Made by a program: the position numbers and the translations under genes
The notes under the pieces: generated by a model
The model's database searches: none
The model's input: only the letters and a program-made list of their open reading frames with translations
Told to the model about the DNA's origin: nothing
Shown here: positions 1,402 to 62,472 of the stretch, piece by piece
Position numbering within the stretch: position 1 is the stretch's first letter
Layout of the letters: every line of letters begins with the position of its first letter
Source of the DNA: Gemmatimonadaceae bacterium
Lineage (GTDB): Bacteria; Gemmatimonadota; Gemmatimonadetes; Gemmatimonadales; Gemmatimonadaceae
Direction: 5' to 3'
Assembly (NCBI GenBank): GCA_019637355.1
Contig: JAHBVT010000001.1
Location: forward strand, 1,145,192-1,209,191
DNA: 64,000 nt

Positions 1402-2102
1402 CGGATGCTCACTGCGCGCGCATCTCTGAACTCCGCGAATCGGCGCGGCGGCCGGGGCGCTACGACGTCCGCCTAGAGCCGTCAGGCGAGAAGCTCCCGG
1501 TATCCATAGAACTCATCGCCCAGCTCAAGCTCAATCCGGGCCGCGAACTCAACCCCGCCGAGTACGCGCGCCTCGTGCAGGGCGCCCGCGCCGTCGCCTG
1601 CTACGACAAAGCCCTCGCCACGCTCGGCGCCCGCGCGCGCAGCAGCGCGGATCTCAAACGCTGGCTTAAGACCAAGGACTTCACCGACGCCGAGATCGCG
1701 CCCGTCACCGAGAAGCTCACCGCACTCGGCCTCCTCGACGACCGCGAGTACGCGCGCAGCTTCGCCCGCAGCCGCCTCGCCCCCAGCCGCGGCTTCGGCC
1801 CACGACGCGTCGCCGCGGAACTCGCGAAGCGAGGCGTCCCGCGAGCGATAGTGGACGAGACCCTCGCGGAGCACGCGAGGGAGCAGGAAGCCGAGGCCGC
1901 GGCCATCGCAGAGCAGGGAGGTGAGCCGCGGCTATCGGCCGTCGCGGCCGCAGCGGCGAAGAAGATGAAGGCGCTCGAGAAGCTGGAGCCTGAGATCAAG
2001 CGGAGGCGCCTCTATGGGTACCTCGCGCGCCGGGGATTCTCGGGTGCAGAAATCGGCGCCGTGCTGCGAAAGATTGGGAGAGGGGAGGCGGAAGGCGGGT
2101 GA
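1398..2102 (+). CDS. recX: Regulatory protein RecX
   Basis: Motifs ALATLGARARSSADLKRWL, GLLDDREYARSFARSR, GPRRVAAELAKRGV, RLYGYLARRGFS. Confidence 0.9.
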   Translation: MTDAHCARISELRESARRPGRYDVRLEPSGEKLPVSIELIAQLKLNPGRELNPAEYARLVQGARAVACYDKALATLGARARSSADLKRWLKTKDFTDAEIAPVTEKLTALGLLDDREYARSFARSRLAPSRGFGPRRVAAELAKRGVPRAIVDETLAEHAREQEAEAAAIAEQGGEPRLSAVAAAAAKKMKALEKLEPEIKRRRLYGYLARRGFSGAEIGAVLRKIGRGEAEGG

Positions 2103-2229
2103 CGGCAGGGAGATGAAGAGAGGGGAGATGGCTGAGAGAGGGAAGACGCTCGGGAGATGACCCTCTCCCTTCTCCCAACCATCTCCCCTCTCCCCGCCGT
2201 AACCCACCTCCCCCCTCCCATCTCCCAAC
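2074..2229. repeat. GA/CT-rich long palindromic element, complete copy
   Basis: Purine arm with GGCGGGTGACGGCAGGGAGA and GAGAGGGGAGATGG; pyrimidine arm with TCTCCCAACCATCTCCCCTCTCCCCGCCGTAACCCACCTCC. Confidence 0.85.
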
Positions 2230-2239
2230 CAGCAATCGC

Positions 2240-4857: not shown

Positions 4858-4941
4858 GGGTGGGAGTCGGGAGGGGGGAGGGGGGGGTGGCGGTGGGGAG
4901 ACGGGAGGCGGGAGATGGCTGGGAGAAGGGAGATGCTCGGG
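4858..4941. repeat. GA/CT element, single arm
   Basis: gggagtcgggaggggggagggggggtggcggtggggagacgggaggcgggagatggctgggagaagggagatg. Confidence 0.7.
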
Positions 4942-45163: not shown

Positions 45164-45172
45164 TCGCGAATC

Positions 45173-46320: not shown

Positions 46321-46328
46321 TCGTCTGG

Positions 46329-46504: not shown

Positions 46505-46606
46505 TGCATCGCGGCGGCATCTTCCGTGCTACCCTCGATCGTACGCGGCGAGGTGGGCATTGCGGCGGAATTCTCCGTTCTACCCCCGATCGTACGCGGC
46601 GAGCAC
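46505..46606. repeat. Degenerate ~51-bp tandem duplication of the heptose-kinase 3' end
   Basis: gcatcgcggcggcatcttccgtgctaccctcgatcgtacgcggcgag versus gcattgcggcggaattctccgttctacccccgatcgtacgcggcgag. Confidence 0.75.
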
Positions 46607-47572: not shown

Positions 47573-47692
47573 CTGCTAAAGGTGTCGCTTCGCTCGTGGT
47601 TCAGGGAGGGGCTCGGCTTTCGTGCTTGGGTCGCGACTTTCGGTGCGCCGGCTTGGGGTTGGTGCGCCGGCGTGGGGTTGGTGCGCCGGCTT

Positions 47693-47760
47693 GGGATCAC
47701 AGCACGCCCTTCGGGGCCTGACCTCTGCGCGCACGGCCCCTACGGGCGTGCTGTGCTCCC
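47693..47760. repeat. REP-like palindrome, copy 4 (minus orientation)
   Basis: Arms GGGATCACAGCACGCCC / GGGCGTGCTGTGCTCCC around the reverse-complement core. Confidence 0.82.
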
Positions 47761-47825
47761 AAGCCTGAGTTGCTCTCGCCTGGCCGGAGATATTTCCTGC
47801 CGCCCCTCTCAAGCCTCGGCGCGGT

Positions 47826-47893
47826 GGGAGACCGCGGCGTCCGAAGGGGCCGTGCGCGAAGCGGTCAGGCCCCGCAGGACGTCGCGGGCTCCC
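47826..47893. repeat. REP-like palindrome, copy 5 (plus orientation; inverted doublet with copy 4)
   Basis: Arms GGGAGACCGCGGCGTCC / GGACGTCGCGGGCTCCC around the conserved core. Confidence 0.82.
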
Positions 47894-47979
47894 GCCGCTC
47901 GCGCGAAAGCGAAAGCCCAGCCGTACAGAGCGGGCTGACCCAGCTCGCGCCGAGCGAGCGATGCGCCCAACTTGTGCCG

Positions 47980-48906: not shown

Positions 48907-49050
48907 CGGCAGGGAGATGGGAGACGAGAGAGGGCCGGGTCAGGGGAGAGGGTCGGGAGAAGGGCTCCTCTCCCGACCTTCTGCCATCTCTCAGCCATCT
49001 CCCCTGTCCCACCTCCCCGCCATCACCCACCTCACCGTCTCCCCTCTACC
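48882..49050. repeat. GA/CT long palindromic element
   Basis: Purine arm gggaggcgggaggggggtgacggcagggagatgggagac...; pyrimidine arm ...ccatctcccctgtcccacctccccgccatcacccacctc. Confidence 0.85.
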
Positions 49051-49062
49051 TTTATCGGACCA

Positions 49063-50376
49063 ATGATTAAGCCTCCCGCCTCCGTGCAATCCCTGACGCG
49101 CACCCTCGAACAGGCCGGCCACGCCGCCTGGTGCGTCGGCGGCGCCGTGCGTGATGCCCTCCTTGGCATCGAGACGCTCGACTGGGATCTCGCCACAAGC
49201 GCGCGGCCGGAGCAGGTGCAGAAGCTCTTCAAGCGCACCATCCCCGTCGGCATTCAGTTCGGCACGGTCGGCGTGCTCGATCGCGATGGCGTGTTGCACG
49301 AGGTCACGACCTTCCGGCACGATGTCGAGACAGACGGCCGGCACGCGGTGGTGAAATTCGGCGCCTCGCTCGAGGAAGATCTCGCGCGCCGCGACTTCAC
49401 CATCAATGCGATCGCGGTGCACGCCGAGCGTCTTGAGATGCGCGATCCCTTCGATGGGCGCGGCGACCTGGAGCGACGCGTCGTGCGCTGCGTGGGTGAT
49501 GCCGCCGAGCGGATGCGTGAGGATCGGCTGCGCGCGCTGCGGGCGCTGCGATTCGCTGGGCGCTTCGACTTCAGCATCGAGCCCGCGACCTGGAGCGCCA
49601 TCGTCGAGAGCGCGCCGCATCTCGGGCGGCTGTCGATGGAGCGCGTGAAGCAGGAGCTTGAGAAAGTGATGGAGCAGGTGGCGCGCCCCGCCGCGACGAT
49701 AGAGCGCTATCGCGAGGCCGGCATCCTCCGTGCGCTGGTGCCCGCCATCGCCGATGCGCCCGCCGCGCGCTTCGCCGCGCTCGATTACCTCGCGCGCCCC
49801 GGCCTCACGCGGCGTCCCGACCGCCGGATGCTGCGTCTCGCAGCGCTGTTCATCGAACCCGGCGTGACGCCGCCCAAGCAGCTCGAGGCCACGCTCAAGG
49901 CCCTCAAATTCAGCAACGTCGAAGCCCGCGCCGCTGTGACGCTCGCCGAGGCCGCCGGCCGCGTGAGTCTCGCGCGCCTGCGCGAACTCGCGGCGGCGCT
50001 GCAGCAGTCCGCCACCGCGCCCACTAGCGAAGCGGCAGTCGAGCTGCGCAAGATCATCGCGCAGGCCGGTCGCCTGATGGTCCCCGGCCTCACGCGCATC
50101 CTGTGGGCGCGCGCCAAGGCCGAGGGCGCCACCGCCGCCGACGGACTCGCCGGACTCGGCCTCTACCGCCGCGCGCTGCGCAGCGCCTTCACCGACCCCC
50201 TCAGCATCGCCGACCTCGCCGTCGACGGCGAGGACCTGCAATCGGCAGGCATCCCCCCCGGCAAGCCACTCGGCGACGCGCTCAAGGCGCTGCTCGAGTG
50301 GGTGCTCCAGGACCCCTCGCGCAACCAGCGCGATGAACTGCTCGCGCGCGCGAGGGAACTCGCGAGCGCGAAATAG
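49063..50376 (+). CDS. cca: CCA tRNA nucleotidyltransferase
   Basis: Motifs VGGAVRDALLG, DWDLAT, EVTTFR, DLARRDFTINA, EDRLRALRALRF. Confidence 0.9.
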   Translation: MIKPPASVQSLTRTLEQAGHAAWCVGGAVRDALLGIETLDWDLATSARPEQVQKLFKRTIPVGIQFGTVGVLDRDGVLHEVTTFRHDVETDGRHAVVKFGASLEEDLARRDFTINAIAVHAERLEMRDPFDGRGDLERRVVRCVGDAAERMREDRLRALRALRFAGRFDFSIEPATWSAIVESAPHLGRLSMERVKQELEKVMEQVARPAATIERYREAGILRALVPAIADAPAARFAALDYLARPGLTRRPDRRMLRLAALFIEPGVTPPKQLEATLKALKFSNVEARAAVTLAEAAGRVSLARLRELAAALQQSATAPTSEAAVELRKIIAQAGRLMVPGLTRILWARAKAEGATAADGLAGLGLYRRALRSAFTDPLSIADLAVDGEDLQSAGIPPGKPLGDALKALLEWVLQDPSRNQRDELLARARELASAK

Positions 50377-50491
50377 CACACCTGGGCGGGAGTCGCGCGA
50401 GCAAAGCAGCAGCAGCAGCGCGCGAAGGGAAGGAGTAGCCCACGACGAGCCTGCGGGCAGGGTAGCGTAGCGCCCAAGCCTGCAAGCGAAG

Positions 50492-50553
50492 GAGACCCCA
50501 CGCCCGTAGGGGCCGTGCGCGAAGAGGTCAGGCCCCGAAGGGCGTGGGGTCTC
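50492..50553. repeat. REP-like palindrome, copy 6
   Basis: Arms GAGACCCCACGCCC / GGGCGTGGGGTCTC around GTAGGGGCCGTGCGCGAAGAGGTCAGGCCCCGAA. Confidence 0.85.
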
Positions 50554-50622
50554 GTGAGCGCCCAGCGCCGAGAAGTGGGGTCTCGTGAGCGCCCAGCGCC
50601 GAGAAGTGGGGTCTCGTGAGCG
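50544..50622. repeat. 31-bp tandem repeat (2.5 copies) starting in the REP right arm
   Basis: GTGGGGTCTCGTGAGCGCCCAGCGCCGAGAA twice, plus GTGGGGTCTCGTGAGCG. Confidence 0.9.
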
Positions 50623-50659
50623 ACCCCCTCTCCCCGCGCGCCGCATTACCTTGCGAGCA

Positions 50660-51658
50660 ATGCACGCGCTCAGCCTCGATGTCGAGATCACCCGCGGCGA
50701 GACCGTCGAGTCGCGCCACCGCGTTCACGCCGCCGTGATCGGCGCCGACGACGTCCTGATCGCCGCCGCCCGCGACTCCGCGCTCGTTTCGATGTGGCGC
50801 TCCTGCGCCAAGCCCTTCCAAGTCCTTCCGCTGCTCGCCAGCGGCGGCTTCGAGCAGCTCGGCTGGGGCCACGAAGAACTCGCCCTCGCCTGCGCCTCCC
50901 ACGGCGCCGAGCCCGAGCACGTTGCCGTCGCCTCGCGGATGCTCTCTAGCCTCGGTCTCGAAGAAGGCGACCTCGCCTGCGGTCCGCACGAACCTCTCTC
51001 GCAGCGCGGCGCCCGTCTGCTACGCGAGAGCGGCGCCGCACCGACGCGCCTGCACAACAACTGCTCCGGCAAGCACGCCGCGATGCTCGCGCGCGCCAAG
51101 ACCGCCGGTTGGTCCATCAAGGGCTACGAGCAGAGCGATCACCCCGTCCAGCTCAGCTGCCTCGGCGAGGTCTCGGCGTGGAGCGGCATCCCGCTCGATG
51201 ATATGCCGCTCGGCGTGGACGGCTGCGGCGTCGCGGTGATGGCGTTGCCGCTGGACCGGATGGCCCTCGCCTACGCGCGTTGGGGTCGCGCGGTGTACGC
51301 CGGCGACGAACTCCCGGCGCGCACCGCGGCTGCCATCCGCAAGCATCCGCACTTGCTCGGCGGCACCGATCGCTTCGACACCGTGATGCTCGAGGAGACC
51401 AAGGGCGGCGTGATCACGAAGGTCGGCGCCGAGGGCGTGCACTCGGTGGCCGTGCCGTCGCTGGGCATCGGGATGGCGATCAAGGTCGAGGACGGCGCGC
51501 AGCGGGCGCAGTATGTCGCGGTGCTGCGCGCGCTGCAGCAGCTGAGCGTGTTGCCGAGCGAGTTGCCGCCGCGTTTGGCGGAGTTCGTGGAGCGCCAGGT
51601 GAAGAATACGCGCGGGGAGGTCGTGGGCAGCGTGCGAAGCCGTGGGGCGACGGCGTGA
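50660..51658 (+). CDS. L-asparaginase II-family protein
   Basis: Motifs RSCAKPFQ, ACASHGAE, HNNCSGKHA, GVDGCG, KVGAEG. Confidence 0.92.
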   Translation: MHALSLDVEITRGETVESRHRVHAAVIGADDVLIAAARDSALVSMWRSCAKPFQVLPLLASGGFEQLGWGHEELALACASHGAEPEHVAVASRMLSSLGLEEGDLACGPHEPLSQRGARLLRESGAAPTRLHNNCSGKHAAMLARAKTAGWSIKGYEQSDHPVQLSCLGEVSAWSGIPLDDMPLGVDGCGVAVMALPLDRMALAYARWGRAVYAGDELPARTAAAIRKHPHLLGGTDRFDTVMLEETKGGVITKVGAEGVHSVAVPSLGIGMAIKVEDGAQRAQYVAVLRALQQLSVLPSELPPRLAEFVERQVKNTRGEVVGSVRSRGATA

Positions 51659-52275
51659 GCGACGCACTCACGCCCGAGGTCGCCGCCTTGGTGCGCCTCT
51701 CCGCGCGAATCGCGATCGGCAGCGAGTTCGAGATCCGCGCCGGCTGCGCCGAGGTCGTCGCCGCCGAGGTGCCGACGCCGTGGGTGGAGGAGTGCATCCT
51801 CCAGAGCTACCTGATGGCCGGCTTCCCGCGCACGCTCAACGCGATGCGCGAGTGGCGCCGCGTCAGCGGCGTCGAGGCCCCGGAGCCTGAAGAGATTCCC
51901 GAGCCGAGCCTGTGGCGCTGGCGTCAGCAGGGAGAACAGACCTGCGAGATCGTCTACGGCAAGTTCTACACGAAGCTCCGCGAGAACATCGCGCATCTGC
52001 ATCCCGCACTCGACGAGTGGATGATCGTCGAAGGCTACGGCAAGATCCTCTCGCGCCCGGGCTTAGAGCTCAAGCTACGCGAGCTCTGCATCGTCGCCGC
52101 CTGCGCCGCGATGGGGCAGGACCGGCAACTGCACTCGCATCTGCACGGCGCGGTGAACGCGGGGGCGACAGGCGCGGAGGTCGCGGGGACGCTCGCGGCG
52201 ATTGAGGGGCTGGTCGAGGAGGCGCATCTGTTGCGCGCTCGACTGCTGTGGGCGCGGGTTCACGGAAAGGCTTGA
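51655..52275 (+). CDS. Carboxymuconolactone decarboxylase (AhpD-like) family protein
   Basis: Motifs YGKILSRPGL, RELCIVAACA, QLHSHLHGAVNAGAT. Confidence 0.88.
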   Translation: MSDALTPEVAALVRLSARIAIGSEFEIRAGCAEVVAAEVPTPWVEECILQSYLMAGFPRTLNAMREWRRVSGVEAPEPEEIPEPSLWRWRQQGEQTCEIVYGKFYTKLRENIAHLHPALDEWMIVEGYGKILSRPGLELKLRELCIVAACAAMGQDRQLHSHLHGAVNAGATGAEVAGTLAAIEGLVEEAHLLRARLLWARVHGKA

Positions 52276-52278
52276 ACG

Positions 52279-52470
52279 GGCGGGGAGGAGGGAGGGGGAG
52301 AGGAGGGAGAGGGCGGGGAGAGGGGAGAAGGACGATGGCTGAGAGACGGCAGAAGGTCGGGAGATGGGCGCCCTCTCCCAACCATCCGCCCTCTCCCAAC
52401 CATCTCCCCTCTCCCAACCATCTCCCCTCTCCCGTCCACCCGCCGTCACCCACCTCCCATCTCCCAGCTC
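52279..52470. repeat. GA/CT long palindromic element
   Basis: Right arm has tandem CTCTCCCAACCATCTCCC units and ccgccgtcacccacctccc. Confidence 0.85.
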
Positions 52471-52533
52471 CCAGCCGTCGAGCGCAACGAATCGATGCTG
52501 CCGCCGCCGTGAACCCGCTAGATTTCCCAGCCA

Positions 52534-53544
52534 ATGTTTATAGACCTAGTGACCGCCCGAGTCACCGCCGGCACCGGCGGCTCCGGCTGCACGTCGTTCC
52601 GCCGCGAGAAGTTCGCGCCGATGGGCGGGCCGGACGGCGGTGACGGAGGCAAGGGCGGCGATGTCATCGTCCGCGGCGACGCCAACCTGAGCACGCTGCT
52701 CGACTTCACCTACCGCGACCACTGGGAAGCGGAGCGCGGCGAGCACGGGATGGGGTCGAACAAGACCGGCCGCTCGGGCAAGGATGTCGTCCTGCCGGTG
52801 CCGCCTGGCACGGTCATCCGCGACCGCGACACGGGACTGCGACTCGGGGAGATCCTCGAGCACGGGCAGGAGATGGTCGTCGCCAAGGGCGGCCGCGGCG
52901 GACGCGGGAACACGTTCTTCGCCACCGCGACGCACCAGGCGCCGCGCGAGTGGCAGCCCGGCGAGGAAGGCGAGGTGCGCACGCTCGAACTCGAGCTCAA
53001 GCTCATCGCCGACATCGGCCTCGTCGGTCAGCCAAATGCCGGCAAGAGCACGCTGCTGAGCGTCATCTCGGCGGCCCGCCCCAAGATCGCCGACTACCCC
53101 TTCACGACCCTCGCCCCCAACCTCGGCGTCGTGCAGCTATCGGATTCGCGAACGTTCGTGGTCGCGGACATTCCCGGAATCATTGAAGGGGCACATACCG
53201 GCAAGGGCCTCGGGCTCCAGTTCCTGCGGCACATCGAGCGCACGCGCATCCTCGCCTTCCTGATCCCCATCGACGCGATGGACTGGCAGGCCGAGTACGA
53301 CCAGCTGCGCAGCGAGGTCCGCAGCCACTCCGAGGAGCTGGCCCGCAAGCCGCACTGCGTGGTCTTCACCAAGCTCGACCTGCTCGGTGAGGACTATGTA
53401 CCTGAGATCGAGGCGCCGGAGGCGTTCGGAGTGTGGTCCATCTCCGCTGCCGGCCGGATTGGGCTGGACCAGCTCAAGGCCAACTGGTGGAGCCGGCTCC
53501 TAGAGCTCCGGAAGGCCGCCGGCCTAGTGCCCACCGAGGGCTGA
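52534..53544 (+). CDS. obgE: GTPase ObgE
   Basis: Motifs GGPDGGDGGKGG, LELKLIADIGLVGQPNAGKST, YPFTTL, DIPG, TKLD. Confidence 0.97.
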   Translation: MFIDLVTARVTAGTGGSGCTSFRREKFAPMGGPDGGDGGKGGDVIVRGDANLSTLLDFTYRDHWEAERGEHGMGSNKTGRSGKDVVLPVPPGTVIRDRDTGLRLGEILEHGQEMVVAKGGRGGRGNTFFATATHQAPREWQPGEEGEVRTLELELKLIADIGLVGQPNAGKSTLLSVISAARPKIADYPFTTLAPNLGVVQLSDSRTFVVADIPGIIEGAHTGKGLGLQFLRHIERTRILAFLIPIDAMDWQAEYDQLRSEVRSHSEELARKPHCVVFTKLDLLGEDYVPEIEAPEAFGVWSISAAGRIGLDQLKANWWSRLLELRKAAGLVPTEG

Positions 53545-53548
53545 CGCG

Positions 53549-54496
53549 GTGCCTGCGGCGGCCCAGCGGACCCCTCGGTGGATCCCGGCTGCCGCCCTGC
53601 CTCAGCCCTTAAGCGATCTTTCGACACCACCGGCGGGATTGTGGTGCCTCGGGGACGCCGAGGGCGTCTTGGGCGAACCTGAGCGCCTCGTTTCGATTGT
53701 AGGGACCCGCGACGCCTCGGCCTACGGAGAGCGAATGGCCGCGCGGCTGGCGGCTGGGGCGGCCCGGGAGGGGCTCGTGGTGGTCAGCGGCTTGGCCCGG
53801 GGAATTGATGCCGTGGCGCACCGGGCGGCTATCGAGGCAGGCGGCCGGACTGTGGCCATCCTGGGTACCGGAGTCGACGTACCGTACCCAGCAGGTCATC
53901 GGGCCCTGCACGAGCTTGTCCAAGACAATGGGGCCGTGCTATCCGAGATGGAGCCCGGTACGAGGGCCTTCCCAGGCTGCTTCCCGCGACGGAATCGGAT
54001 CATCGCGGCCCTGTCCAAAATGACCCTAGTGGTCGAGGCTGGGCACAAGTCCGGGGCGATGAACACGGCGAGGCTCGCCCACGACATCTACCGGACCATC
54101 GCGGCCGTCCCCGGGCAGGCCGACGACCCCCGGGCGATGGGCAGCAACCAGCTCCTGATGGACGGGGCCAGCCTTGTCCGGGATGTGGAAGATCTGTTGA
54201 TTGCCTTTGGGTTATCCACATCGAGGCTGCACAAAGGAGATCAATTGGATGCCGACCGGGCTGGTGTAAGAATCCCCGTACACCCAGATGACCTCGTAAT
54301 CCTACGAGCCCTCGGCGGGGCGGCGGTCCCGGCCCAAGCGCTCGCGGAAAGAGTTGGTATGTCAGTACGGCAGGTATCTGAGAGGCTGCTAAGGCTGGAG
54401 CTATGCGGCCTGGCCGTGGTGGAGGGTGGGGGCTACCGGGCCGGTGATCCGCGCGTCGCAGTAAGGCTACAGCAACACGCCAGCACTGGCGCGTGA
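53549..54496 (+). CDS. dprA: DNA-processing protein DprA
   Basis: Motifs SIVGTR, VVSGLARGIDA, ILGTGVD, FPRRNRIIA, EAGHKSGA. Confidence 0.93.
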   Translation: MPAAAQRTPRWIPAAALPQPLSDLSTPPAGLWCLGDAEGVLGEPERLVSIVGTRDASAYGERMAARLAAGAAREGLVVVSGLARGIDAVAHRAAIEAGGRTVAILGTGVDVPYPAGHRALHELVQDNGAVLSEMEPGTRAFPGCFPRRNRIIAALSKMTLVVEAGHKSGAMNTARLAHDIYRTIAAVPGQADDPRAMGSNQLLMDGASLVRDVEDLLIAFGLSTSRLHKGDQLDADRAGVRIPVHPDDLVILRALGGAAVPAQALAERVGMSVRQVSERLLRLELCGLAVVEGGGYRAGDPRVAVRLQQHASTGA

Positions 54497-54549
54497 GCTG
54501 TTTCGACTCGATCAAGAGGTCGGCGATACCTGCCCAGTAAGGCCCTCTG

Positions 54550-54650
54550 AATGACTCCACATATTATCGTAAGTATCGCATTAACTAACCACGTTAAGAT
54601 ATTGAAAAATAAGGATATGATAATTTACTTTAAGTTATTATCATTCCGTG
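54550..54650. promoter_or_regulatory. Strongly AT-rich intergenic tract of unknown function
   Basis: acatattatcgtaagtatcgcattaactaaccacgttaagatattgaaaaataaggatatgataatttactttaagttattatcatt, with an imperfect GATAAT-N12-ATTATC inverted repeat. Confidence 0.45.
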
Positions 54651-54711
54651 GATTGGCGTCCAGTGCGAATGTCAGAGGGGTGGCGATGGCTCACCTGCTC
54701 CGGTCCGGCCG

Positions 54712-55938
54712 TTGACCTCCTGGCCTCACCTCTACCTGCACGTACCGTTCTGCGGGCGTCGCTGCTCCTACTGCGACTTCGCGATTGCCGTGCGGCGGGA
54801 GGTTCCGGTCTCCGAGTTCATTGACGCCATAATGGCTGAGTTCGTCACGCGCCGGATTTCGCTCAACGCCGGCCTACTCAGGACCATCTATTTCGGCGGC
54901 GGGACGCCATCCAAGCTCGGCGGAGAAGGAGTCGCCAGACTTCTCCACGGAATTCGCGAACTGGCCGGTGTTGGCAAGTTTTCCACATCCGTGGACGCCC
55001 TCGAGATCACCATCGAGGCCAATCCCGAGGACGTTTCGGCGGAATCTGCCGCGGCCTGGGTGGCTGCGGGGGTGAACCGGGTGTCGCTGGGGGTCCAGAG
55101 CTTCGAGCCAGCCGTGCTTCAATGGATGCACCGGGAGCACCCCCCGACCCGGGCCGCCGAGGCCGTCCGCGAGCTCAGGGCGGCTGGGGTGCAGGAGATC
55201 TCCGCAGACCTCATATTCTCGGTCCCGGAGGCACTGGGCAGAAGTTGGACAACCGATCTCGAGCGGGTCCTAGAGTTGGACGTCGAACACCTCTCCCTGT
55301 ACGGCCTGACCGTCGAACCCAAGACCCCGCTAGGCCGTTGGACCGCCCGCGGCGAGGTGCAGGAGGCGCCCGAGGAGCGTTACGAAGCCGAGTTCCTCGA
55401 GGCCCACGAGCGCTTGGGCGAGGCCGGGTACGAACATTACGAGGTCTCCAACTACGCCCGTCCTGGCAAGCGGGCCCGGCACAACTCGGCGTACTGGACG
55501 GGGGCTTCGTATCTCGGGATTGGGCCCTCGGCGCACGGGTTTGACGGGAGGGAGCGGCGCTGGAACCTGCCGGCCTACGCGGAGTGGCTTCGGGAGGTGC
55601 GGGCGGGGCGGGATCCGGTGGGCGGGCGGGAGGTGCTCGGAGGTCAGAAGCTGGGCGGGGGGAAGGAACTGGCCGGGGGCCACGATCCAACCCTAGGAAA
55701 GGAGCCCGTCCGGACCGCGGGCTCCTCGCGTCCTCCCCAGACGGGTCTCGAACCCGCCGAGCGGATCTACCTCGGACTCCGCACAATCGACGGGCTGCCT
55801 ATCCGTGAAAACGAACTAAAGAAGGTTACTTCGTGGATCGGCGAAGGCTGGGCTACTCTCGACGGCGACCGACTTCGGCTCACGCCGCGGGGCTGGCTAC
55901 GCCTCGACGCGCTCGCCGCCGCGCTCCTCGACGCTTGA
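54712..55938 (+). CDS. hemW: Radical SAM heme chaperone HemW
   Basis: Motifs HLYLHVPFCGRRCSYCDF, IYFGGGTPS, EANP, RVSLGVQSF, HYEVSNY, YLGIGPSAH. Confidence 0.93.
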   Translation: MTSWPHLYLHVPFCGRRCSYCDFAIAVRREVPVSEFIDAIMAEFVTRRISLNAGLLRTIYFGGGTPSKLGGEGVARLLHGIRELAGVGKFSTSVDALEITIEANPEDVSAESAAAWVAAGVNRVSLGVQSFEPAVLQWMHREHPPTRAAEAVRELRAAGVQEISADLIFSVPEALGRSWTTDLERVLELDVEHLSLYGLTVEPKTPLGRWTARGEVQEAPEERYEAEFLEAHERLGEAGYEHYEVSNYARPGKRARHNSAYWTGASYLGIGPSAHGFDGRERRWNLPAYAEWLREVRAGRDPVGGREVLGGQKLGGGKELAGGHDPTLGKEPVRTAGSSRPPQTGLEPAERIYLGLRTIDGLPIRENELKKVTSWIGEGWATLDGDRLRLTPRGWLRLDALAAALLDA

Positions 55939-55970
55939 CTTGTATGCCAAGTCCTTTCTAATCTTGGACT
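55936..55970 (+). promoter_or_regulatory. Probable leaderless promoter of hrcA
   Basis: TTGACT at 55936-55941, TAATCT at 55959-55964, ATG 7 nt later; inverted repeat AAGTCC-N11-GGACTT. Confidence 0.5.
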
Positions 55971-55971
55971 T

Positions 55972-57018
55972 ATGGCCAACGCCGAGCTCTCCGATCGCGA
56001 ACGCCAGGTCCTCGAGGCCGTGATTCGCTCCTACGTGGAGACCGCCGAGCCGGCGGGCTCCCGTACGATCAGTCGGCGCTTCGGGCTGGGCGTGTCTCCG
56101 GCCACCATCCGCAATACGATGGCTGACCTGGAGGAGAAAGGCTTCCTCTTCCACCCGCACACCTCGGCGGGCCGCATCCCGACGGACAAGGCCTATCGCT
56201 TCTATGTAGATGGGCTGATGCACCTGGACCGCCCGCTGCCGCTGCAGGAGCGTGAGCGCCTGGCGGAGGAGATCGGCGAGCGGGGCTCGGCGATTGAGAC
56301 GATCCTCAGGCGCGCGGCCCAATCCCTGGGCGTGCTTACACAGGAACTCGGCGTCGCCCTCGGCCCGCGCCTCGACCAGACGGTGCTCACGAAGCTCGAG
56401 TTGGTGCGGATGAGCACGGAGCGCTTGATCTTGGTGCTGACGCTGCGGGGCGGGGCGGTGCGCACGATCTTCATCGAGATCGCCGGTGAGATCGCGGACA
56501 ACGCCATCGCCGAAGTGCAGCAGGTGCTCAACGAACGCCTCGCGGGCCACTCGCTCGCCGAGATCCGCGCCAGCCTCGCCGCGCGCTTGCGTGACGTCGT
56601 GGCGCCGGGCGGCGCGACGGAGTTGCTGAACATCTTCGTGCAGGAGGGCGAACAGCTCTTCGACGTCGCCGCGGCGGCGGACGAGGAGAGCGTGCTGCTC
56701 GGCCAGGCCTCAGTGCTCGCGGAGAAGCCGGAGTTCGCGAGTGGCGATCGGCTGCGGCAGCTGATCGCGCTCACGGAGACGCGCACGCAACTGGCGGGGC
56801 TGCTCCGCCAGCGCGCGGCGCAGCCGGGCGTGTCGATCACGATCGGTGACGAGCACGGCGTGGGGTTGCTCGGGGGACTCACGCTGGTGACGGCGGAGTA
56901 CCGGGCGGGGTCGCTGACGGGGGTGATTGGGGTGATTGGGCCGACGCGGATGCCTTATGAGAAGGTTATTGCTTTGGTGTCCCATACGTCTTCGTTGGTT
57001 ACGGATTTGCTTGCTTAG
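55972..57018 (+). CDS. hrcA: Heat-inducible transcription repressor HrcA
   Basis: Motifs SPATIRNTMADLEEKG, HPHTSAGRIPTDKAYRFYVD, IGVIGPTRMPY. Confidence 0.97.
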   Translation: MANAELSDRERQVLEAVIRSYVETAEPAGSRTISRRFGLGVSPATIRNTMADLEEKGFLFHPHTSAGRIPTDKAYRFYVDGLMHLDRPLPLQERERLAEEIGERGSAIETILRRAAQSLGVLTQELGVALGPRLDQTVLTKLELVRMSTERLILVLTLRGGAVRTIFIEIAGEIADNAIAEVQQVLNERLAGHSLAEIRASLAARLRDVVAPGGATELLNIFVQEGEQLFDVAAAADEESVLLGQASVLAEKPEFASGDRLRQLIALTETRTQLAGLLRQRAAQPGVSITIGDEHGVGLLGGLTLVTAEYRAGSLTGVIGVIGPTRMPYEKVIALVSHTSSLVTDLLA

Positions 57019-57126
57019 ATGGTGGGGGAGGGGAGATGGGAGGGGGGTGACGGCGGGGAGAGGGGAAAGGGGAGAGGGTTGGGAGAGGGGAGAGGGTTGG
57101 GAGAGGGGAGAGGGTTGGGAGAGGGT
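57019..57126. repeat. GA/CT element left (purine) arm flanking the four-helix-bundle gene
   Basis: gggagatgggaggggggtgacggcggggagagggg followed by three GGGAGAGGGTTGGGAGAG-type 18-mers. Confidence 0.88.
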
Positions 57127-57129
57127 TTC

Positions 57130-57585
57130 TTATATCCGCTTGAAGTCGCGGTTGGTGGTGCGGCGTTGGCTTTCGATCAAGCGCAGGAGCATTGCGCGCA
57201 CCTTCGACAGAAGGGATTGGCGGTGGGTGTGGTGCGCTTCGGGGATTACGTCGGCGGCGGCGATGTACCAGGTGATGGCCTCGCGGGCTGAGCCGAGGGC
57301 GTAGCTGAAGAATCGAATGCGATCGGCGCTGCCGGCGCGGCTGTAGCCCTCGGCGAGGTTGGCGCTCACGGAGCCGACGGCGCGCTCAAGTTGGTCGGCG
57401 ATGCCGCCGCGATATCGCGCGCGCAGGGCGCGTGCGTCCTCCTTCGCGCAGTGGAGGATGAAGAGCGCGGCACGGTACACGTGCAGCTTCCATAGGAGAT
57501 CCTGCCGCAAGGCCTCGGGGCAGGCGAGCTCCCACGCTTCCTGCGAGGGTGGCAGGTCGGTGTGGAACGAGGATTGCTTAGGCAT
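57130..57585 (-). CDS. Four helix bundle protein (23S rRNA IVP / bAvd-like superfamily)
   Basis: DQLERAVGSVSANLAEGYSR...RFFSYALGSARE motif. Confidence 0.9.
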   Translation of the reverse strand: MPKQSSFHTDLPPSQEAWELACPEALRQDLLWKLHVYRAALFILHCAKEDARALRARYRGGIADQLERAVGSVSANLAEGYSRAGSADRIRFFSYALGSAREAITWYIAAADVIPEAHHTHRQSLLSKVRAMLLRLIESQRRTTNRDFKRI

Positions 57586-57595
57586 AGCCGAGCAT

Positions 57596-57740
57596 ATCCC
57601 CTCTCCCCTCTCCCTGAATCATCTCCCCATCTCCCCCCTCACCACCATCTCCCCTCTCCCCAAATCATCTCCCCTCTCCCAACCATCTCCCCTCTCACAT
57701 CTCCCCGCCGCCACCCACCTCCCCACCTCCCGTCTCCCAC
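57596..57740. repeat. GA/CT element right (pyrimidine) arm flanking the four-helix-bundle gene
   Basis: Tandem CCATCTCCCCTCTCCC units ending catctccccgccgccacccacctccccacctcccgtctccc. Confidence 0.88.
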
Positions 57741-57755
57741 TAGTTTTACGCTCAA

Positions 57756-58889
57756 ATGGCCGATTACTACGCAACCCTCGGACTCCCCAAATCCGCCTCC
57801 GACGACGACATCAAGTCCGCGTATCGGAAACTGGCGACCAAGTTCCATCCCGACCGCAACGGGGGCTCCAAGGAAGCCGAGGAGCAGTTCAAGGCGATCA
57901 CCGAGGCCTACGACGTCCTGCGCGATCCGCAGAAGCGCGCGGCCTATGATCGCTACGGCGAGGCGGGCCTGCGAGGCGGGATGGGCGGCGCGGGGGGCTT
58001 CCACCACGTCGATCTGTCCGAAGCGCTGAACATCTTTATGCGCGACTTCGGGCTCGGCGACATCTTCGGCGGCGGGCAGGGTGGCCGGCAGTCGTCGGGG
58101 CCGCGCGCCGGCGCCGACGTGAAGGTGGATATGCAGCTGACGATACTCGAGGTGGCGACGGGCGTCACGAAGACGATCAAGCTGAAGCTGCTGGACCCCT
58201 GCACGCGCTGCACGGGCTCGGGCGCGGAGCCGGGGACGTCACCGTCGCGCTGCACGACCTGCAATGGCCAAGGCGAAGTGCGCCGCGCGCAGCAGAGCTT
58301 CTTCGGGCAGTTCGTGTCGGTGGCGCCGTGCCCCACCTGCCGCGGCGAGGGAGTGATGATCGCCTCGCCCTGCAAGGAGTGCCGCGGCGAAGGTCGCGAG
58401 CGCGGCGAGCACACGATCGACCTCAAGGTCCCAGCCGGTGTGGCGACGGGCCAGTATATGCACCTGCGCGGCGTCGGTAACGCCGGCGTGCGTGGCGGTC
58501 CGCGCGGGGATGTCATCGTGGTGTTCGAAGTGCTCGAGGACGATCGCTTCGAGCGCGACGGCGAGGACCTCTACTGCGAAGTCTTGGTCACGTACCCGCA
58601 GGCCGTCCTTGGCGCCGACCTCGACGTGCCCGGCGTGACCGGTCCGCTCACGCTGCGGATGCCCGAAGGCACGCAGAGCGGCGAAGTCTTCGTGCTCCGC
58701 GGCCGCGGCCTCCCGCGCGTGAACGCCAGCGGCGCCGGCGACCTGCACGTGCGCGTGCAGGTGTGGACGCCGGCGAAGCTCTCGAAGGAGGAGACGAAGC
58801 TGATCGAGCAGCTGCACGAGGTGCAGGCGCGACCGCCGGAGAAGCGCGAGAAAGGCTTTTGGGCGAAGATGAAGGAAGCCTTAGGGTGA
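57756..58889 (+). CDS. dnaJ: Chaperone DnaJ
   Basis: HPD motif and four CxxCxGxG zinc repeats. Confidence 0.98.
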   Translation: MADYYATLGLPKSASDDDIKSAYRKLATKFHPDRNGGSKEAEEQFKAITEAYDVLRDPQKRAAYDRYGEAGLRGGMGGAGGFHHVDLSEALNIFMRDFGLGDIFGGGQGGRQSSGPRAGADVKVDMQLTILEVATGVTKTIKLKLLDPCTRCTGSGAEPGTSPSRCTTCNGQGEVRRAQQSFFGQFVSVAPCPTCRGEGVMIASPCKECRGEGRERGEHTIDLKVPAGVATGQYMHLRGVGNAGVRGGPRGDVIVVFEVLEDDRFERDGEDLYCEVLVTYPQAVLGADLDVPGVTGPLTLRMPEGTQSGEVFVLRGRGLPRVNASGAGDLHVRVQVWTPAKLSKEETKLIEQLHEVQARPPEKREKGFWAKMKEALG

Positions 58890-58896
58890 TGCTGCG

Positions 58897-59105
58897 AGAC
58901 GGGAGGCGGGAGGTGGGTTAGGACGGGGAGATGGCAGGAGAGACACGACGGGAGAGACGGAACACGGCTCCATCTCTCCACCCTCTCCCAACCCTCTCCC
59001 CTCTCCCAACCATCTCCCCTCTCTCAACCATCTCCCCTCTCTCAACCATCGTCCTTCTCCCCATCTCCCTCCCGTCACCCTCCTCTCCACCTCCCACCTC
59101 CCAGC
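58897..59105. repeat. GA/CT long palindromic element
   Basis: Purine arm gagacgggaggcgggaggtgggttaggacggggagatgg; tandem 18-mers ctctcccaaccatctccc; ccgtcaccc. Confidence 0.85.
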
Positions 59106-59107
59106 CA

Positions 59108-59944
59108 GTGACGAAGAGCTGGACCCGCGTTTCACTCCATCCCTCTTCAACGGGGAAGAAGCCAGACGTCTCCGCCGCAATGTTCCAAGCCGGCGCCGAG
59201 GGCCTGCACGAGCTCGACGACGCGCTCGTGACGCATCTGCCCGCGTCCACCGACGCAGACGCGTTCGTCCGCGCGGTGAAGGCAGCAGATCCGGCGTTGC
59301 GCGCGGAGATCAGCCCGCTCGAGGACACCGACTGGGCCGAGAAGTGGAAGGAGCGCATCACGTCGCATCAGCTTGGCGCATTGATGGTGACGCCGCCGTG
59401 GTTGGCCGCGGGGTGCGATCCGGCGACGACGATCGTCATCGAGCCGGCGATGGCCTTCGGCACGGGCGAGCATCCGACGACGCGCGGCGTCGTGCGCTTG
59501 ATGCAGGGCGTGATCCGCACCGGTGATGCGGTGGCGGACCTCGGCTCGGGGTCGGCGGTGTTGGCGATCGCGGCGGCCAAGCTGGGTGCGGCGCGCGTGT
59601 ATGCGATCGAGATCGATCCCGACGCCACGGGGAACGCCGAGGAGAACATCGCGCGCAATGGCGTCGGCGATCGCGTGGCGGCGCTCGAAGGCGACGCGTC
59701 GCTGTTCCTGCCGCTGGTGGCGCCGGTGCGCGTGATCCTCGCGAACATCATCTCGTCGGTGCTCGTGGACCTGCTGCCGCTGATGGCGATGACCTTGGCG
59801 GACGACGGCGTGATCATCCTCTCGGGCATCCTGCGCGAGGAGCGTGAACGGATGGTCACGGCGCTGCGCGATGGCGGCTGGCGCTTGGACGCCGAGGACG
59901 CCGAAGACCAGTGGTGGAGCGTGCGATGCACGAAGGCCGCGTGA
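59108..59944 (+). CDS. prmA: Ribosomal protein L11 methyltransferase
   Basis: Motifs DWAEKWK, IEPAMAFGTGEHPTT, DLGSGSAVL, ANI, LSGI. Confidence 0.93.
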   Translation: MTKSWTRVSLHPSSTGKKPDVSAAMFQAGAEGLHELDDALVTHLPASTDADAFVRAVKAADPALRAEISPLEDTDWAEKWKERITSHQLGALMVTPPWLAAGCDPATTIVIEPAMAFGTGEHPTTRGVVRLMQGVIRTGDAVADLGSGSAVLAIAAAKLGAARVYAIEIDPDATGNAEENIARNGVGDRVAALEGDASLFLPLVAPVRVILANIISSVLVDLLPLMAMTLADDGVIILSGILREERERMVTALRDGGWRLDAEDAEDQWWSVRCTKAA

Positions 59945-60031
59945 GTGGGCTGACCTCTTCCGTCACGGCCGCGTGAGTGTGCTGACCATTTCCGTCACGG
60001 CCGCGTGAGCCTGCCGACCTTCTTCGCCGAC
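59935..60031. repeat. 32-bp tandem triplication of the prmA-stop / rsmE-start junction
   Basis: ggccgcgtgagtgggctgacctcttccgtcac / ggccgcgtgagtgtgctgaccatttccgtcac / ggccgcgtgagcctgccgaccttcttcgccgac. Confidence 0.85.
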
Positions 60032-60769
60032 GAGGCCTTCGCCGCGCCGTCGCAGGTGACGCTCGGCGAAGACGCGGCGCACCATATGCGCGTGCGGCGC
60101 CTGGAGATCGGCGCGCGCGTGCGGCTGCTCGACGGGCAGGGCACGCGCGGCGAAGGCGTGCTCACGCAGTTGGCGAAGCGCCACGCGACGGTGGCGGTGG
60201 AAGCAGCCGCGTATAGCGAGCCGCCGGCGCCGGTGCACCTGCTGTTGCCGGTGGCGGACAAAGATCGGATGCTGTGGCTCGCGGAGAAAGCCACGGAACT
60301 CGGCGTCGCGAGTTGGCGGCCGGTGCTCTACCGGCGCTCCAAGCACGTGAATCCGCGCGGCGAGGGGCCGGTGTTCCAGCAGAAGCTGCGTGCGCGGATG
60401 ATCAGCGCATTAGAGCAGTCCGGTGGCAGTTGGTTGCCGACGATGTATCCCGACGCATCGGTGGAGCACGCGATCAGTGCTGCGCCTCAGGGCATTGCGC
60501 TGGTGCTCGACGCAGGGGCGCCGTCGGTGTGGGAGGTGCTCCGCGGTGCCGGAGGTGGGAGCGTCGGCTCGGGCACCGCGGCGGCAGCGGCGCCCGCGCA
60601 GGGTGGCATCAGCGTCGCGGTCGGGCCGGAAGGCGGCTTCGAACCTGCCGAGCGCGCCGCGCTCGAGGCGGCGGGCTTCCGGCCGGCCGCCCTCGGGCCG
60701 AACGTGCTGCGCTTCGAGACGGCGGCGGTGGCGGCCATCGCCGTCGCGCGCGCCGCGCTACCTTTCTGA
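60005..60769 (+). CDS. rsmE: 16S rRNA m3U1498 methyltransferase RsmE
   Basis: Motifs HHMRVRRL, EKATELGV, ALEQSG, VGPEGGF, LGPNVLRFETA. Confidence 0.95.
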   Translation: MSLPTFFADEAFAAPSQVTLGEDAAHHMRVRRLEIGARVRLLDGQGTRGEGVLTQLAKRHATVAVEAAAYSEPPAPVHLLLPVADKDRMLWLAEKATELGVASWRPVLYRRSKHVNPRGEGPVFQQKLRARMISALEQSGGSWLPTMYPDASVEHAISAAPQGIALVLDAGAPSVWEVLRGAGGGSVGSGTAAAAAPAQGGISVAVGPEGGFEPAERAALEAAGFRPAALGPNVLRFETAAVAAIAVARAALPF

Positions 60770-60808
60770 GCCGCGCCCTGCGGCCGACACCAACTTCATC
60801 GGGTCCGT

Positions 60809-61150
60809 ATGAGCACCGAGTGCCTCTTCTGTCAGATCGTGAAGAAAGAAATCGAGGCGACCATCGTCGCCGAGACTGAGCACGCGCTCGCGTTTCACGA
60901 CATCGCGCCGCAGGCGCCAGTGCACGTGCTGGTCGTTCCGAAGAAGCACTACAGCTCGATGAACGAGATGCCCGACGGCTCGGTGCTCGGCGCCGTGGCC
61001 TCGTTGGCCAAGCAGGTGGCGAAGGACCTCGGCATCGCCGAGGGCGGCTATCGCGCGGTGGTGAACACCGGGGAGCAGGGTGGGCAGACCGTGCCCCACC
61101 TCCATATGCACCTCCTCGGCGGGCGCGCGATGAAGTGGCCGCCGGGGTGA
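60809..61150 (+). CDS. Histidine triad (HIT/Hint) nucleotide-binding protein
   Basis: Motifs CLFCQI, PQAPVHVLVVPK, QTVPHLHMHLLGG. Confidence 0.95.
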   Translation: MSTECLFCQIVKKEIEATIVAETEHALAFHDIAPQAPVHVLVVPKKHYSSMNEMPDGSVLGAVASLAKQVAKDLGIAEGGYRAVVNTGEQGGQTVPHLHMHLLGGRAMKWPPG

Positions 61151-62271
61151 GGGTCGCGCTCGTCCACGAGTGGCTCCTCACGCACGGCGGCTCGGAGGAG
61201 ATCACCGGCCAGCTCTGCCAGCTGTTCCCGGACGCGGACCTCTACACGCTGATTGCCGACCCTGTCCCGTCGCTGCGCGCCCTGATCGGCAATCGCCGCA
61301 TCCGCACCTCCTGGCTGCAGCGCATTCCCGGCGCCACGCGCCATCATCGTCGCCTCCTGCCGTTGATGCCGCGGGCGATCGAGTCGTTCGACTTCAGCGA
61401 CTACGACCTCGTCATCAGCGTCAGCCACGCCGTGGCGAAGGGCGCACGCACGTCGGGGAGGACCGAGCACCTGAACATCTGTTGTTCGCCGATCCGCTAC
61501 GCTTGGGATCTCGAGGAGCAGTATCTCGAAGAGGCCGGACTCTCGCGCGGCCTCAAGGGCGTCGCCGCCCGCGCGCTGCTCGCGCGCATCCGCGCCTGGG
61601 ACCGTCGCAGCGCTGACCGTCCGACGCGCGTGCTGGCAATCTCGCGCTTCATCGCCGAGCGGGTGCATCGCGTGTGGGGCCGCGACAGCGAGGTGCTGTA
61701 TCCGCCGGTGGAGACGGAGTACTTCGGTCAGCCCACCGGCGTGGCACGCGAGCACGACCTCTACGTGACGGCCTCGCGCTTCGTCCCCTACAAGCGCATC
61801 CCGCTGATCGTCGAAGCCTTCGCCCAGATGCCGACGCGGCGCCTCGTCGTCATCGGCGACGGCCCCGAGATGCCCAAGGCCCGCGCCGCCGCGACACCGA
61901 ACGTGACGTTCCAGGGCCGCGTCCCGCGCGCCGAGCTGCGCGAGTGGCTGCAGCGTGCCCGCGGCTTCGTCTTCGCCGCCGAGGAGGATTTCGGCATCGC
62001 CCCGGTCGAGGCGATGGCCGCCGGCACCCCGGTGGTCGCGTACGGCCGCGGCGGCGCCCGCGAGACCGTGGTCGGAGAGGGAGAAGCCCGGACGGGCGTG
62101 TTCTTTGAGGCCCAGTCCGTTGAGGCGATCGTGGACGCGGTGCGGCGGCTTGAGGAGGCTGGCGTGCGCTCGACTGACTGCGTGGCGCGGGCGGAGCTGT
62201 TTTCGGTGGCTGAGTTTAGGCGGAGAGTGGTTGGCCTCACGAGTGGGAGAGGGGAGGCGGTAGGGGGGTGA
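61147..62271 (+). CDS. Glycosyltransferase family 4
   Basis: Motifs VALVHEWL..HGGSE, SRFVPYKR, EEDFGIAPVEAMAAG. Confidence 0.92.
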   Translation: MRVALVHEWLLTHGGSEEITGQLCQLFPDADLYTLIADPVPSLRALIGNRRIRTSWLQRIPGATRHHRRLLPLMPRAIESFDFSDYDLVISVSHAVAKGARTSGRTEHLNICCSPIRYAWDLEEQYLEEAGLSRGLKGVAARALLARIRAWDRRSADRPTRVLAISRFIAERVHRVWGRDSEVLYPPVETEYFGQPTGVAREHDLYVTASRFVPYKRIPLIVEAFAQMPTRRLVVIGDGPEMPKARAAATPNVTFQGRVPRAELREWLQRARGFVFAAEEDFGIAPVEAMAAGTPVVAYGRGGARETVVGEGEARTGVFFEAQSVEAIVDAVRRLEEAGVRSTDCVARAELFSVAEFRRRVVGLTSGRGEAVGG

Positions 62272-62472
62272 GGGCGGGGAGGCAGGCGGGGGCAGAGGGC
62301 TGAGAGACGGGACACGGCGGGAGAAGGCCCCCTCTCCCAGACCATCGCCCGTCTCCCAACCCTCTCCCGTCTCCCAACCCTCTCCCGTCTCCCAACCCTC
62401 TCCCGTCTCCCAACCCTCTTCCGTCTCCCATCTCCCCGCCGTCACCCCCCTCCCCCTCTCCCCCCTCCCAGC
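62245..62472. repeat. GA/CT long palindromic element with four tandem 18-mers (CCGTCTCCCAACCCTCTC)
   Basis: Purine arm overlaps the GT4 stop; right arm ends ccccgccgtcacccccctccccctctccc. Confidence 0.88.

Follow-up and report, generated by a model that had tools for sequence, protein, structure and literature searches.

What are the long G-rich palindromes that follow one gene after another in parts of a Gemmatimonadaceae chromosome, and to which known system, if any, do they belong? The question is raised by a stretch of 64,000 nucleotides, referred to here as the window (C1:1145192-1209191 of a 3.136-Mb chromosome with 68.7% GC), from a metagenome-assembled genome (MAG) of that family that is 96.5% complete (G000). 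An earlier reading of the letters alone (the original prediction) had described, at eleven places in the window, a dispersed family of palindromes with variable numbers of 18-bp units. This dispersed repeat family is real and previously undescribed, and it is a further variant of the already known dispersed G-rich heptameric or palindromic intergenic repeats. As for what it does, our best explanation, which we hold tentatively and at a little less than even confidence, is that the palindromes may be members, lacking an open reading frame (ORF), of a heptamer-repeat system that is associated with IVP proteins, resembles the intervening sequences (IVSs) of rRNA and would act as RNA stems. The original prediction had recognised the dispersed family. 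It had not noticed that the arms are built of heptamers, that many of them are solo, that elements persist at orthologous sites while their cores differ from species to species, or that there is a link to IVP genes.

The window was scanned for GGYGGGTGASGGCRGGGAGA, allowing up to 3 mismatches, with the expectation taken from shuffles of the window. There are 23 matches, against 0.17 expected and a maximum of 2 in any shuffle, and they lie at 2094/2189, 4882, 41754, 42342/42463, 43607/43779, 46349, 48898/49012, 52302/52435, 57042/57700, 58912/59064 and 62263/62431, so that the motif is present at every one of the eleven places originally named. A match at 12898, in ordinary coding sequence, is due to chance and is not a member of the family. 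In the whole genome the motif is matched 84 times (42 on the plus and 42 on the minus strand), compared with 5 times in the reversed genome. An nhmmer model of the terminus detects 65 termini genome-wide, which yield 64 arms of 67-232 nt (median, 85).

GGGAGAN heptamers in tandem make up the arm; they surround a conserved core, GGGTGACGGCGGGGAGA, and lead into 18-bp units, of which there are 0-7. Read from its sharp outer edge, the arm consensus is (T)GGGAGAnGGGAGrnGGGGAGGnGGGTGACGGCGGGGAGAnGGGAGAnGGGAGAyGGTTGGGAGA..., then 0-7 x GGGAGAGGGGAGATGGTT, the 18-bp unit being composed of GGGAGAG+GGGAGATGGTT; GGGAGAGGGGAGGTGGGGAGGGGGGTGACGGCGGGGAGA is an example of a G-rich arm sequence. The core (arm positions 19-40) and the G runs are near-invariant, about each seventh base is free, and there are 23 exact occurrences of the 17-mer GGGTGACGGCGGGGAGA in the genome. 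The near-invariant core and the repeated 17-mer bear out the claim that the shared motif goes beyond GA-richness. The variable unit number had also been seen correctly, as Tandem Repeats Finder (TRF) reports 3.5-5.6 copies of 18-bp units at six window sites (43680-43771, 52369-52452, 57063-57125, 57627-57698, 58981-59061 and 62329-62430). By contrast, the basic unit has to be taken as the single arm and not as the palindrome: about 28 arms stand alone (solo arms), with no partner better than random genomic controls. About 36 arms form about 19 inverted pairs, that is, palindromes of 150-230 bp whose two ends are conserved over about 55 nt (terminal inverted repeats), and an inverted-repeat finder recovers the paired arms of the window. 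Paired elements are asymmetric: one arm is "clean" and rich in GGGAGA, and the other has G-to-A and T-to-C variants and the common motif GAYGGCNGAGAGA. Two inverted pairs carry cargo, in one case a PF05635 gene (window 57130-57585) and in the other a small membrane-protein gene (C1:2340166-2340700). The elements of the window, with the gene that two of the arms enclose, are as follows; on the window, Rfam matches only two tRNAs and none of the repeats.

2075-2227, no strand: palindrome after recX; the recX stop codon (TGA 2100-2102) comes from its left arm, which is G-rich and of a degenerate "B" type, and its right arm abuts the 3′ end of a minus-strand gene at 2240-~4800
4858-4935, plus strand: degenerate solo G-rich arm between divergent genes
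41715-41792, minus strand: solo arm, C-rich on the plus strand, in frame in the GT9 heptosyltransferase ORF 41181-42350 (about amino acids 179-205)
42323-42501, no strand: palindrome between the GT9 gene and the 3′ end of a minus-strand tRNA-Val; the left arm provides the GT9 stop codon
43587-43817, no strand: palindrome directly 3′ of a plus-strand tRNA-Met; right arm with 5.1 units of 18 bp
46330-46404, plus strand: solo G-rich arm
48879-49050, no strand: palindrome whose left arm provides the stop codon of gene 47770-48906
52287-52473, no strand: palindrome 3′ of gene 51280-52275; right arm with 4.7 units
57023-57125, plus strand: G-rich "A" arm with 3.5 units, 4 nt past the stop of hrcA; brackets the IVP gene on the left
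57130-57585, minus strand: 23S_rRNA_IVP gene (PF05635, four-helix bundle) between two arms
57597-57738, minus strand: "A" arm, C-rich on the plus strand, 17 nt before dnaJ; right bracket of the IVP gene
58893-59102, no strand: palindrome 3 nt past the dnaJ stop codon; right arm with 4.5 units
62244-62469, no strand: palindrome whose left arm provides the stop codon of gene 61135-62271; right arm with 5.6 units

Arms that bracket an IVP gene reproduce the architecture of the ORF-bearing IVSs of rRNA, and it is for this reason that the palindromes may be read as ORF-less members of such a system. G000 has two PF05635 genes, namely the one in the window (IVP#2), which lies between clean arms, and another at C1:1842757-1843071, whose locus (C1:1842570-1843190, L124, minus strand) is bracketed by inverted GAGACGT/GAGACTT arrays. 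Genes resembling that of an H+-pyrophosphatase (hppA, by eye only) and ychF are neighbours of this second locus. The copy at the hrcA/dnaJ junction encloses a PF05635 gene in G000, in a closer relative (X) and in two further genomes, G004 and G049; in other species, 21-63 nt are found there. In the genus, flanking inverted repeats of at least 30 bits are found at 23 of 30 IVP loci, compared with 2 of 150 control genes. Most of these loci are beside the same upstream gene, and the heptamer depends on the species (GAGACKT, GATGTRA, CAGGTRT, GGTGTGA, GCTGAAG and others); at the syntenic locus, it changes among species and both flanks remain complementary. The same holds for the phylum, where inverted heptamer arrays, again of differing heptamers, are present at 22 of 27 IVP loci and at 1 of 53 shifted controls. 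In Xanthomonadales (L162-L166, from Xanthomonas, Rhodanobacter, Dyella and a Lysobacter-like contig), a PF05635 gene is located between accB and accC, on the same strand, with GGGAATC-type arrays upstream and their complement downstream; BLAST finds them in 4 of 5 loci, and by eye 25 of 30 positions of the X. campestris flanks are complementary. In both G000 and Xanthomonas, the arrays flanking the IVP gene belong to the genome's own dispersed heptamer families. IVP genes and inverted heptamer arrays are consistently paired, in two phyla, and our literature search turned up no paper that connects IVP proteins with heptamer or palindromic repeats.

Several known systems share part of this design. 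Among them are the GGGAATC repeats of Xanthomonas and the GGGGAYT repeats of Nostoc, G-rich tandem heptamers with G-quadruplex (G4) motifs that are about 90% intergenic, near the end of a neighbouring ORF, in some cases as inverted pairs, and that occupy the same gene junctions in related species with varying length and sequence, their role being unknown (Rehm et al. 2015, PMC4692102). In that report GGGAATC is the dispersed, G4-forming heptamer of Xanthomonas, and IVP/S23p genes are not mentioned (PMC4692102). The present family is alike in its tandem G-rich heptamers with a G4 motif, its intergenic position near ORFs and its length variation at orthologous sites. It differs in its conserved core, which is unique, and in its higher-order repeat of 18 bp, in that most copies form long inverted pairs, and in that arms overlap stop codons and reading frames. 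The 23S rRNA IVSs of Leptospira and Coxiella with an S23p/IVP ORF offer a second comparison: an inverted-repeat stem encloses the ORF, the heptamer number varies among strains, short ORF-less forms exist (PMC4990558) and, in Coxiella, GACAGAT heptamers lie beside the S23p ORF and RNase III cleaves at the first of them (PMC4990558). Although the inverted-repeat stem around a PF05635 ORF is common to both (here, window 57023-57738 and the 23/30 and 22/27 loci above), the present copies are a dispersed family of about 60 arms between protein-coding or tRNA genes, not insertions in helix 25 or 45 of 23S rRNA. The single 23S gene of G000 is free of inserts, at 2955 nt compared with 2925 in the model.

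The repetitive extragenic palindromic (REP) sequences and REPINs that accompany the REP-associated tyrosine transposase (RAYT) are similar in occurring as singlets and inverted doublets, in their extragenic position downstream of genes, and in their long vertical inheritance, genome-specific master sequence and single-copy gene flanked by repeats (PMC3116915; bioRxiv 10.1101/2021.07.10.451892). However, the arms described here are tandem heptamers and 3-8 times longer than REP units, which are about 20-40 nt, and the flanked gene codes for a four-helix-bundle protein without known catalytic activity. A search of G000 for PF01797 (Y1/RAYT) gave no match in this 96.5%-complete genome, whereas control genomes gave matches; with arms of 67-232 nt made of heptamers and 18-mers, the original distinction between these elements and classical REPs holds. 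Rickettsia palindromic elements (RPEs) are palindromic repeats of 100-200 bp that are tolerated in frame in conserved genes, where they add peptide segments. Set beside RPEs, the family is alike in size, palindromic form and in-frame tolerance, but its sequence and host are unrelated and most copies are extragenic, adjoining stop codons. Finally, the short tandemly repeated repetitive (STRR) heptamers of cyanobacteria and the TAACTGA heptamer of Beggiatoaceae are abundant intergenic tandem repeats of sporadic distribution and unknown role (PMC4679880); unlike the present family, they mostly lie immediately before start codons as direct repeats, are not G-rich, and have neither a conserved core nor palindromic pairing. 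Deinococcus small noncoding repeats (SNRs) and myxobacterial repeats, a first guess from GC content, were ruled out by the DnaJ relatives, which are in Gemmatimonadaceae. By analogy, the elements resemble the REPIN-RAYT system, with IVP as the flanked gene, as well as the architecture of ORF-bearing IVSs; membership in either does not follow, as there is no RAYT and no rRNA location.

The G000 genome also contains other arrays of this general kind. TRF detects 484 period-7 arrays in it, the commonest units being GGATGAC (133), GAAGACG (58), GGAGGAC (42), GGGGAGA (23), GAGACGT (15) and GAGACTT (9). The arrays are evenly spread over the chromosome, whereas the GGGAGA family is clustered, and many arrays flank GC hairpins 3′ of genes. 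Similarly, a GC hairpin and an array of pyrimidine heptamers, for instance CTTCCGTCTTCAGT, come after many of the "solo" arms, and the GGGAGA family is therefore one case of a general architecture of purine array, hairpin and pyrimidine array.

How the elements arose can be addressed by comparing relatives. An exact-pattern scan of the GTDB species representatives finds the G000 core in no other of them. G000 and X share the core variant GGGTKACGGC, G004, G049 and G003 have the sister variant GGSGGYASGGGCGGGGATGG, and neither is found in the other 36 sampled genomes of the genus. G049 (closed, 3.26 Mb) carries 61 arms, and the syntenic 170 kb contains 25 of these, with clustering as in G000. 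At the hrcA/dnaJ junction, an element with the same edges is present in G000, G004 and G049; these three also share one at the 51280/52534 junction, where the site is empty in G034, G008, G039 and G044, and at the 61135/62555 junction G000 and G049 have the element and G004 has an extra gene. Short empty spacers are found at the compared sites in G008, G034, G039, G044 and L014, the last of which reads hrcA-21 nt-dnaJ. In X, the closer relative (Logan run SRR12908307; DnaJ 92%, ABC transporter 95%), these sites are likewise occupied by elements with a core of the G000 type, whose units number 0-1, against 3-5 in G000. Gain or loss is seen as well, as X has a solo arm (L130 7553-7613) 12 nt upstream of a HIT-family gene, where G000 has a 39-nt spacer (window 60770-60808). 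Orthologous arms of X and G000 are 0.78 identical, compared with 0.71 for non-orthologous arms. Local hopping was considered and rejected, near and far arms being equally alike (0.708 and 0.729 identity). Over short times, we read these sequence comparisons as vertical descent with slippage and with gain or loss. Over longer times, the copies would be kept alike by homogenisation or by turnover from a master copy, one or the other being required because the copies of each genome share changes. Other assemblies of the window region are identical to it or broken at the repeats; for instance, a contig of the same organism (L012, from Logan SRR12908349, 1343 nt) ends exactly in the arms on either side of dnaJ. 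Since short-read assemblies break in the arms, MAGs of this group will under-report the elements.

The mechanism that we propose for a lineage-specific, IVP-associated, IVS-like system starts from arms as independent modules, two of which, in inverted order, make each palindrome, the number of 18-bp units growing or shrinking by slippage. The elements would be old residents of 3′ untranslated regions and intercistronic spacers, vertically inherited with occasional gain and loss, and their likeness within a genome would come from gene conversion or from turnover from a master copy; no movement by a classical transposase is apparent. An element would be transcribed with the upstream gene, and its G-rich and C-rich arms could then pair into a long imperfect stem, with a G4 as an alternative for the G arm. 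Such a stem might mark or protect the 3′ end of the mRNA, or RNase III might cut it, as in the stems of rRNA IVSs. The IVP protein probably binds or maintains the arrays, in a logic comparable to that of REPINs around a RAYT gene. A broader form of this proposal is that IVP/S23p proteins, relatives of Avd, which is an accessory protein of diversity-generating retroelements (DGRs), are dedicated partners of bacterial heptamer arrays, with array, IVP gene and inverted array together as the master copy, the protein binding, propagating or homogenising arrays or RNA stems, and the window palindromes as ORF-less copies. To this we give distinctly less credence and regard it as possible but somewhat unlikely.

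Folding is consistent with stems. The RNA fold z scores of the palindromes, relative to dinucleotide shuffles, are between -3 and -11; for instance, the recX element (2075-2229) folds at -102 kcal/mol (z -8.2) on the plus strand and at -125 kcal/mol (z -10.8) on the minus strand, and the asymmetric dnaJ/prmA element (58893-59104) has z scores of -3.2 and -4.5 on the two strands. As had been proposed, the paired copies are therefore capable of forming very stable hairpins, with z from -3.2 to -10.8. The elements have no U tract and so are not canonical Rho-independent terminators.

Several observations weigh against an IVP-associated system of RNA stems and must be set beside these results. For all seven elements between two plus-strand genes, folding is stronger in the antisense than in the sense RNA, the gap being 11-47 kcal/mol, because differences between arms read as G.U on one strand and as A.C on the other, and this is awkward for a role purely in the sense mRNA. 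The G.U asymmetry itself had been considered as support for a sense-strand stem and was discarded, since it is real but favours antisense in 7/7 of these contexts. Within elements, the first 42 nt of the arms do not covary (356 matches, against 366 +/- 10 when permuted; p 0.85), so that exact pairing is under no detectable selection. The covariation check suggested with the original prediction is consequently negative, and in correction of that prediction, the complementarity between the two arms of an element is no greater than that to arms of other elements; as the termini match no better within than between elements, the hairpin derives from the common consensus and not from element-specific compensatory change. 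Regarding the IVP protein, G047 (98% complete) has no IVP match, and the GGATGAC and GAAGACG arrays of G000 have no IVP gene of their own. Because IVP#2 lies in the densest arm cluster, its own bracketing, expected by chance with a probability of roughly 0.2, is weak when taken alone, and the link rests on the wider survey. Finally, as regards the presumed homogenisation, 3 of 7 orthologous X/G000 arms are still mutual best matches.

A first alternative is that the arms are cis-elements of the host without a dedicated protein, generated in place by slippage and recombination, whose stem or G4 would stabilise the mRNA upstream or terminate it, or would keep neighbouring genes insulated from each other, while IVP genes merely use arrays for their own regulation. 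We consider this unlikely, yet it is the strongest of the competitors, and it draws first, as our own explanation also does, on the position of the elements. Genes were called with a heuristic based on GC at third codon positions (GC3), which covers 79% of the chromosome and gives over-long starts, so that distances to gene starts are approximate and those to stops reliable. Of 28 arms whose outer edge is toward the 3′ end of a gene, 8 contain the stop codon and about 10 start 0-5 nt past it. The arm-supplied stop is the TGA of GGG-TGA-CGG, in an identical frame in all eight genes, which gives tails like ..GRGEAEGG*. Two elements stand directly 3′ of tRNA genes (tRNA-Met and tRNA-Val), and the placement just past stop codons and tRNA 3′ ends is thereby corroborated. 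Host cis-elements would account for this tight adjacency and 3′-end location, for the long retention at orthologous sites with varying unit number, and for behaviour like that of the Xanthomonas GGGAATC repeats (PMC4692102). A signal at 3′ ends other than the canonical one is also plausible, as canonical intrinsic terminators are scarce: in 41000-60900 there are 6 terminator-like matches, none of them in an element, against 7.4 expected by chance.

The composition of the flanks, which we count in favour of our own explanation too, also fits host cis-elements. On the strand of the G arm, successive 50-nt bins of the outer flank have C at 0.18, 0.24 and 0.30, against a background of 0.35, with G up to 0.42 and T up to 0.22. 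In three orthologous genes, the last 100 nt have C at 0.14-0.25 with the element and 0.30-0.39 without it; dnaJ is C-poor in all species compared, with or without an element. The depletion of C reaches about 150 nt outside the arms, coding sequence included, for instance at window 48720-48878, 56900-57018 and 62100-62243. Simple cytosine deamination was rejected as the cause, as G rises as much as T, and the skew fits selection against sequence that would pair with the arms better than plain deamination. Energies from RNAduplex between arms and downstream sequence are meaningful only relative to controls, because G-rich arms "pair" even with random genomic DNA at about -60 kcal/mol. At C1:989130-989240, an arm and GC hairpin are directly followed by a (CCTT)n microsatellite of some 25 copies, which pairs with the G arm through many G.U.

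What host cis-elements leave unexplained is the non-repetitive core common to 64 copies and its coordinated, species-specific change, the fact that IVP genes in two phyla are so strongly bracketed, and the arms that lie in frame within coding sequence; the lack of covariation and the better antisense fold count against them too. The in-frame arms are two, in the GT9 gene and in an ABC-transporter linker. In the latter (C1:898797-898907; L129 1198-1308), the arm is translated as a Gly/Glu/Arg-rich insert (..MGEGRGMGEGRG..) in the linker between the transmembrane and nucleotide-binding domains of an ABC exporter, between PF00664 and PF00005. A 95%-identical homologue has 9 residues fewer of the repeat-encoded MGEGRG stretch, and remoter homologues are without the stretch. 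One ABC-transporter homologue is annotated as Pseudogemmatithrix spongiicola.

Less probable still, in fact improbable in our judgement, is that the arms form structures in the DNA itself (G-quadruplex/i-motif, cruciform or H-DNA) acting on replication, recombination or nucleoid organisation. A canonical G4 motif (G3+N1-7 x4) is found in 56 of 64 arms, compared with only 310 in the whole chromosome, so that the G4 potential originally proposed is upheld at the level of motifs, and the conserved G runs with every seventh base free would suit it. Moreover, 45 of 64 arms are within 26% of the chromosome (0.56-1.38 Mb), on the one replichore that runs to a terminus near 1.47 Mb, a clustering that is kept in G049, and the strand-asymmetric flanks could be the mutational footprint of exposed single strands. 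Nevertheless, the change in the flanks is not a simple C-to-T, the orientation of arms is balanced between strands (42 plus, 42 minus) and the exact adjacency to stop codons would be without reason. Within the window there is, as first described, no copy in the atypical island, but the copy-free gap (12.9-41.7 kb) comprises, besides this low-GC island, 13 kb of normal-GC sequence.

A classical non-autonomous transposon (a miniature inverted-repeat transposable element or REPIN), mobilised by a transposase whose gene lies at another place in the genome, is very improbable, for although the long terminal inverted repeats with sharp ends, the presence/absence differences among species and the insertions in reading frames, as in RPEs, would be expected of it, no target-site duplication (no direct repeat around 14 clean pairs) and no common target sequence (no consensus upstream of 64 arms) were found, there is no Y1/RAYT gene, the cargo consists of an IVP gene and a small membrane-protein gene and not of a transposase, most examined sites are common to species with DnaJ about 90% identical, and about half of the arms are solo.

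Some other features of the window are recorded here. A different palindrome is located at 47688-47893, with 31-nt arms that are 90% complementary (GGCTTGGGATCACAGCACGCCCTTCGGGGCC) within a larger 69-nt inverted repeat, and beside it, at 47642-47695, there is a 19-bp tandem repeat; this palindrome may be another repeat family. Near gene starts, there are a perfect 31-bp tandem repeat (50544-50622; 2.5 copies, 100% matches) and a 51-bp tandem repeat (46501-46617; 2 copies). ARAGORN predicts a minus-strand tRNA-Ser(cga) at 60623-60698, inside the plus-strand ORF 60005-60769 and without Rfam support, which is probably a false positive.

For annotation, the elements matter because they add tails to C termini and inserts within reading frames, alter codon usage in the genes next to them and interrupt short-read assemblies. 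Beyond this, the association of IVP genes with heptamer arrays joins three questions into one testable hypothesis, namely the role of PF05635 ("S23 ribosomal") proteins outside DGRs, the origin of rRNA IVSs and the excess of heptamers in some bacteria. A cultured relative exists (Pseudogemmatithrix, a genus that probably includes G049), and Xanthomonas is genetically tractable. If the hypothesis is true, an IVP-array system would explain both the origin of rRNA IVSs and the long-noted excess of 7-nt repeats in bacteria.

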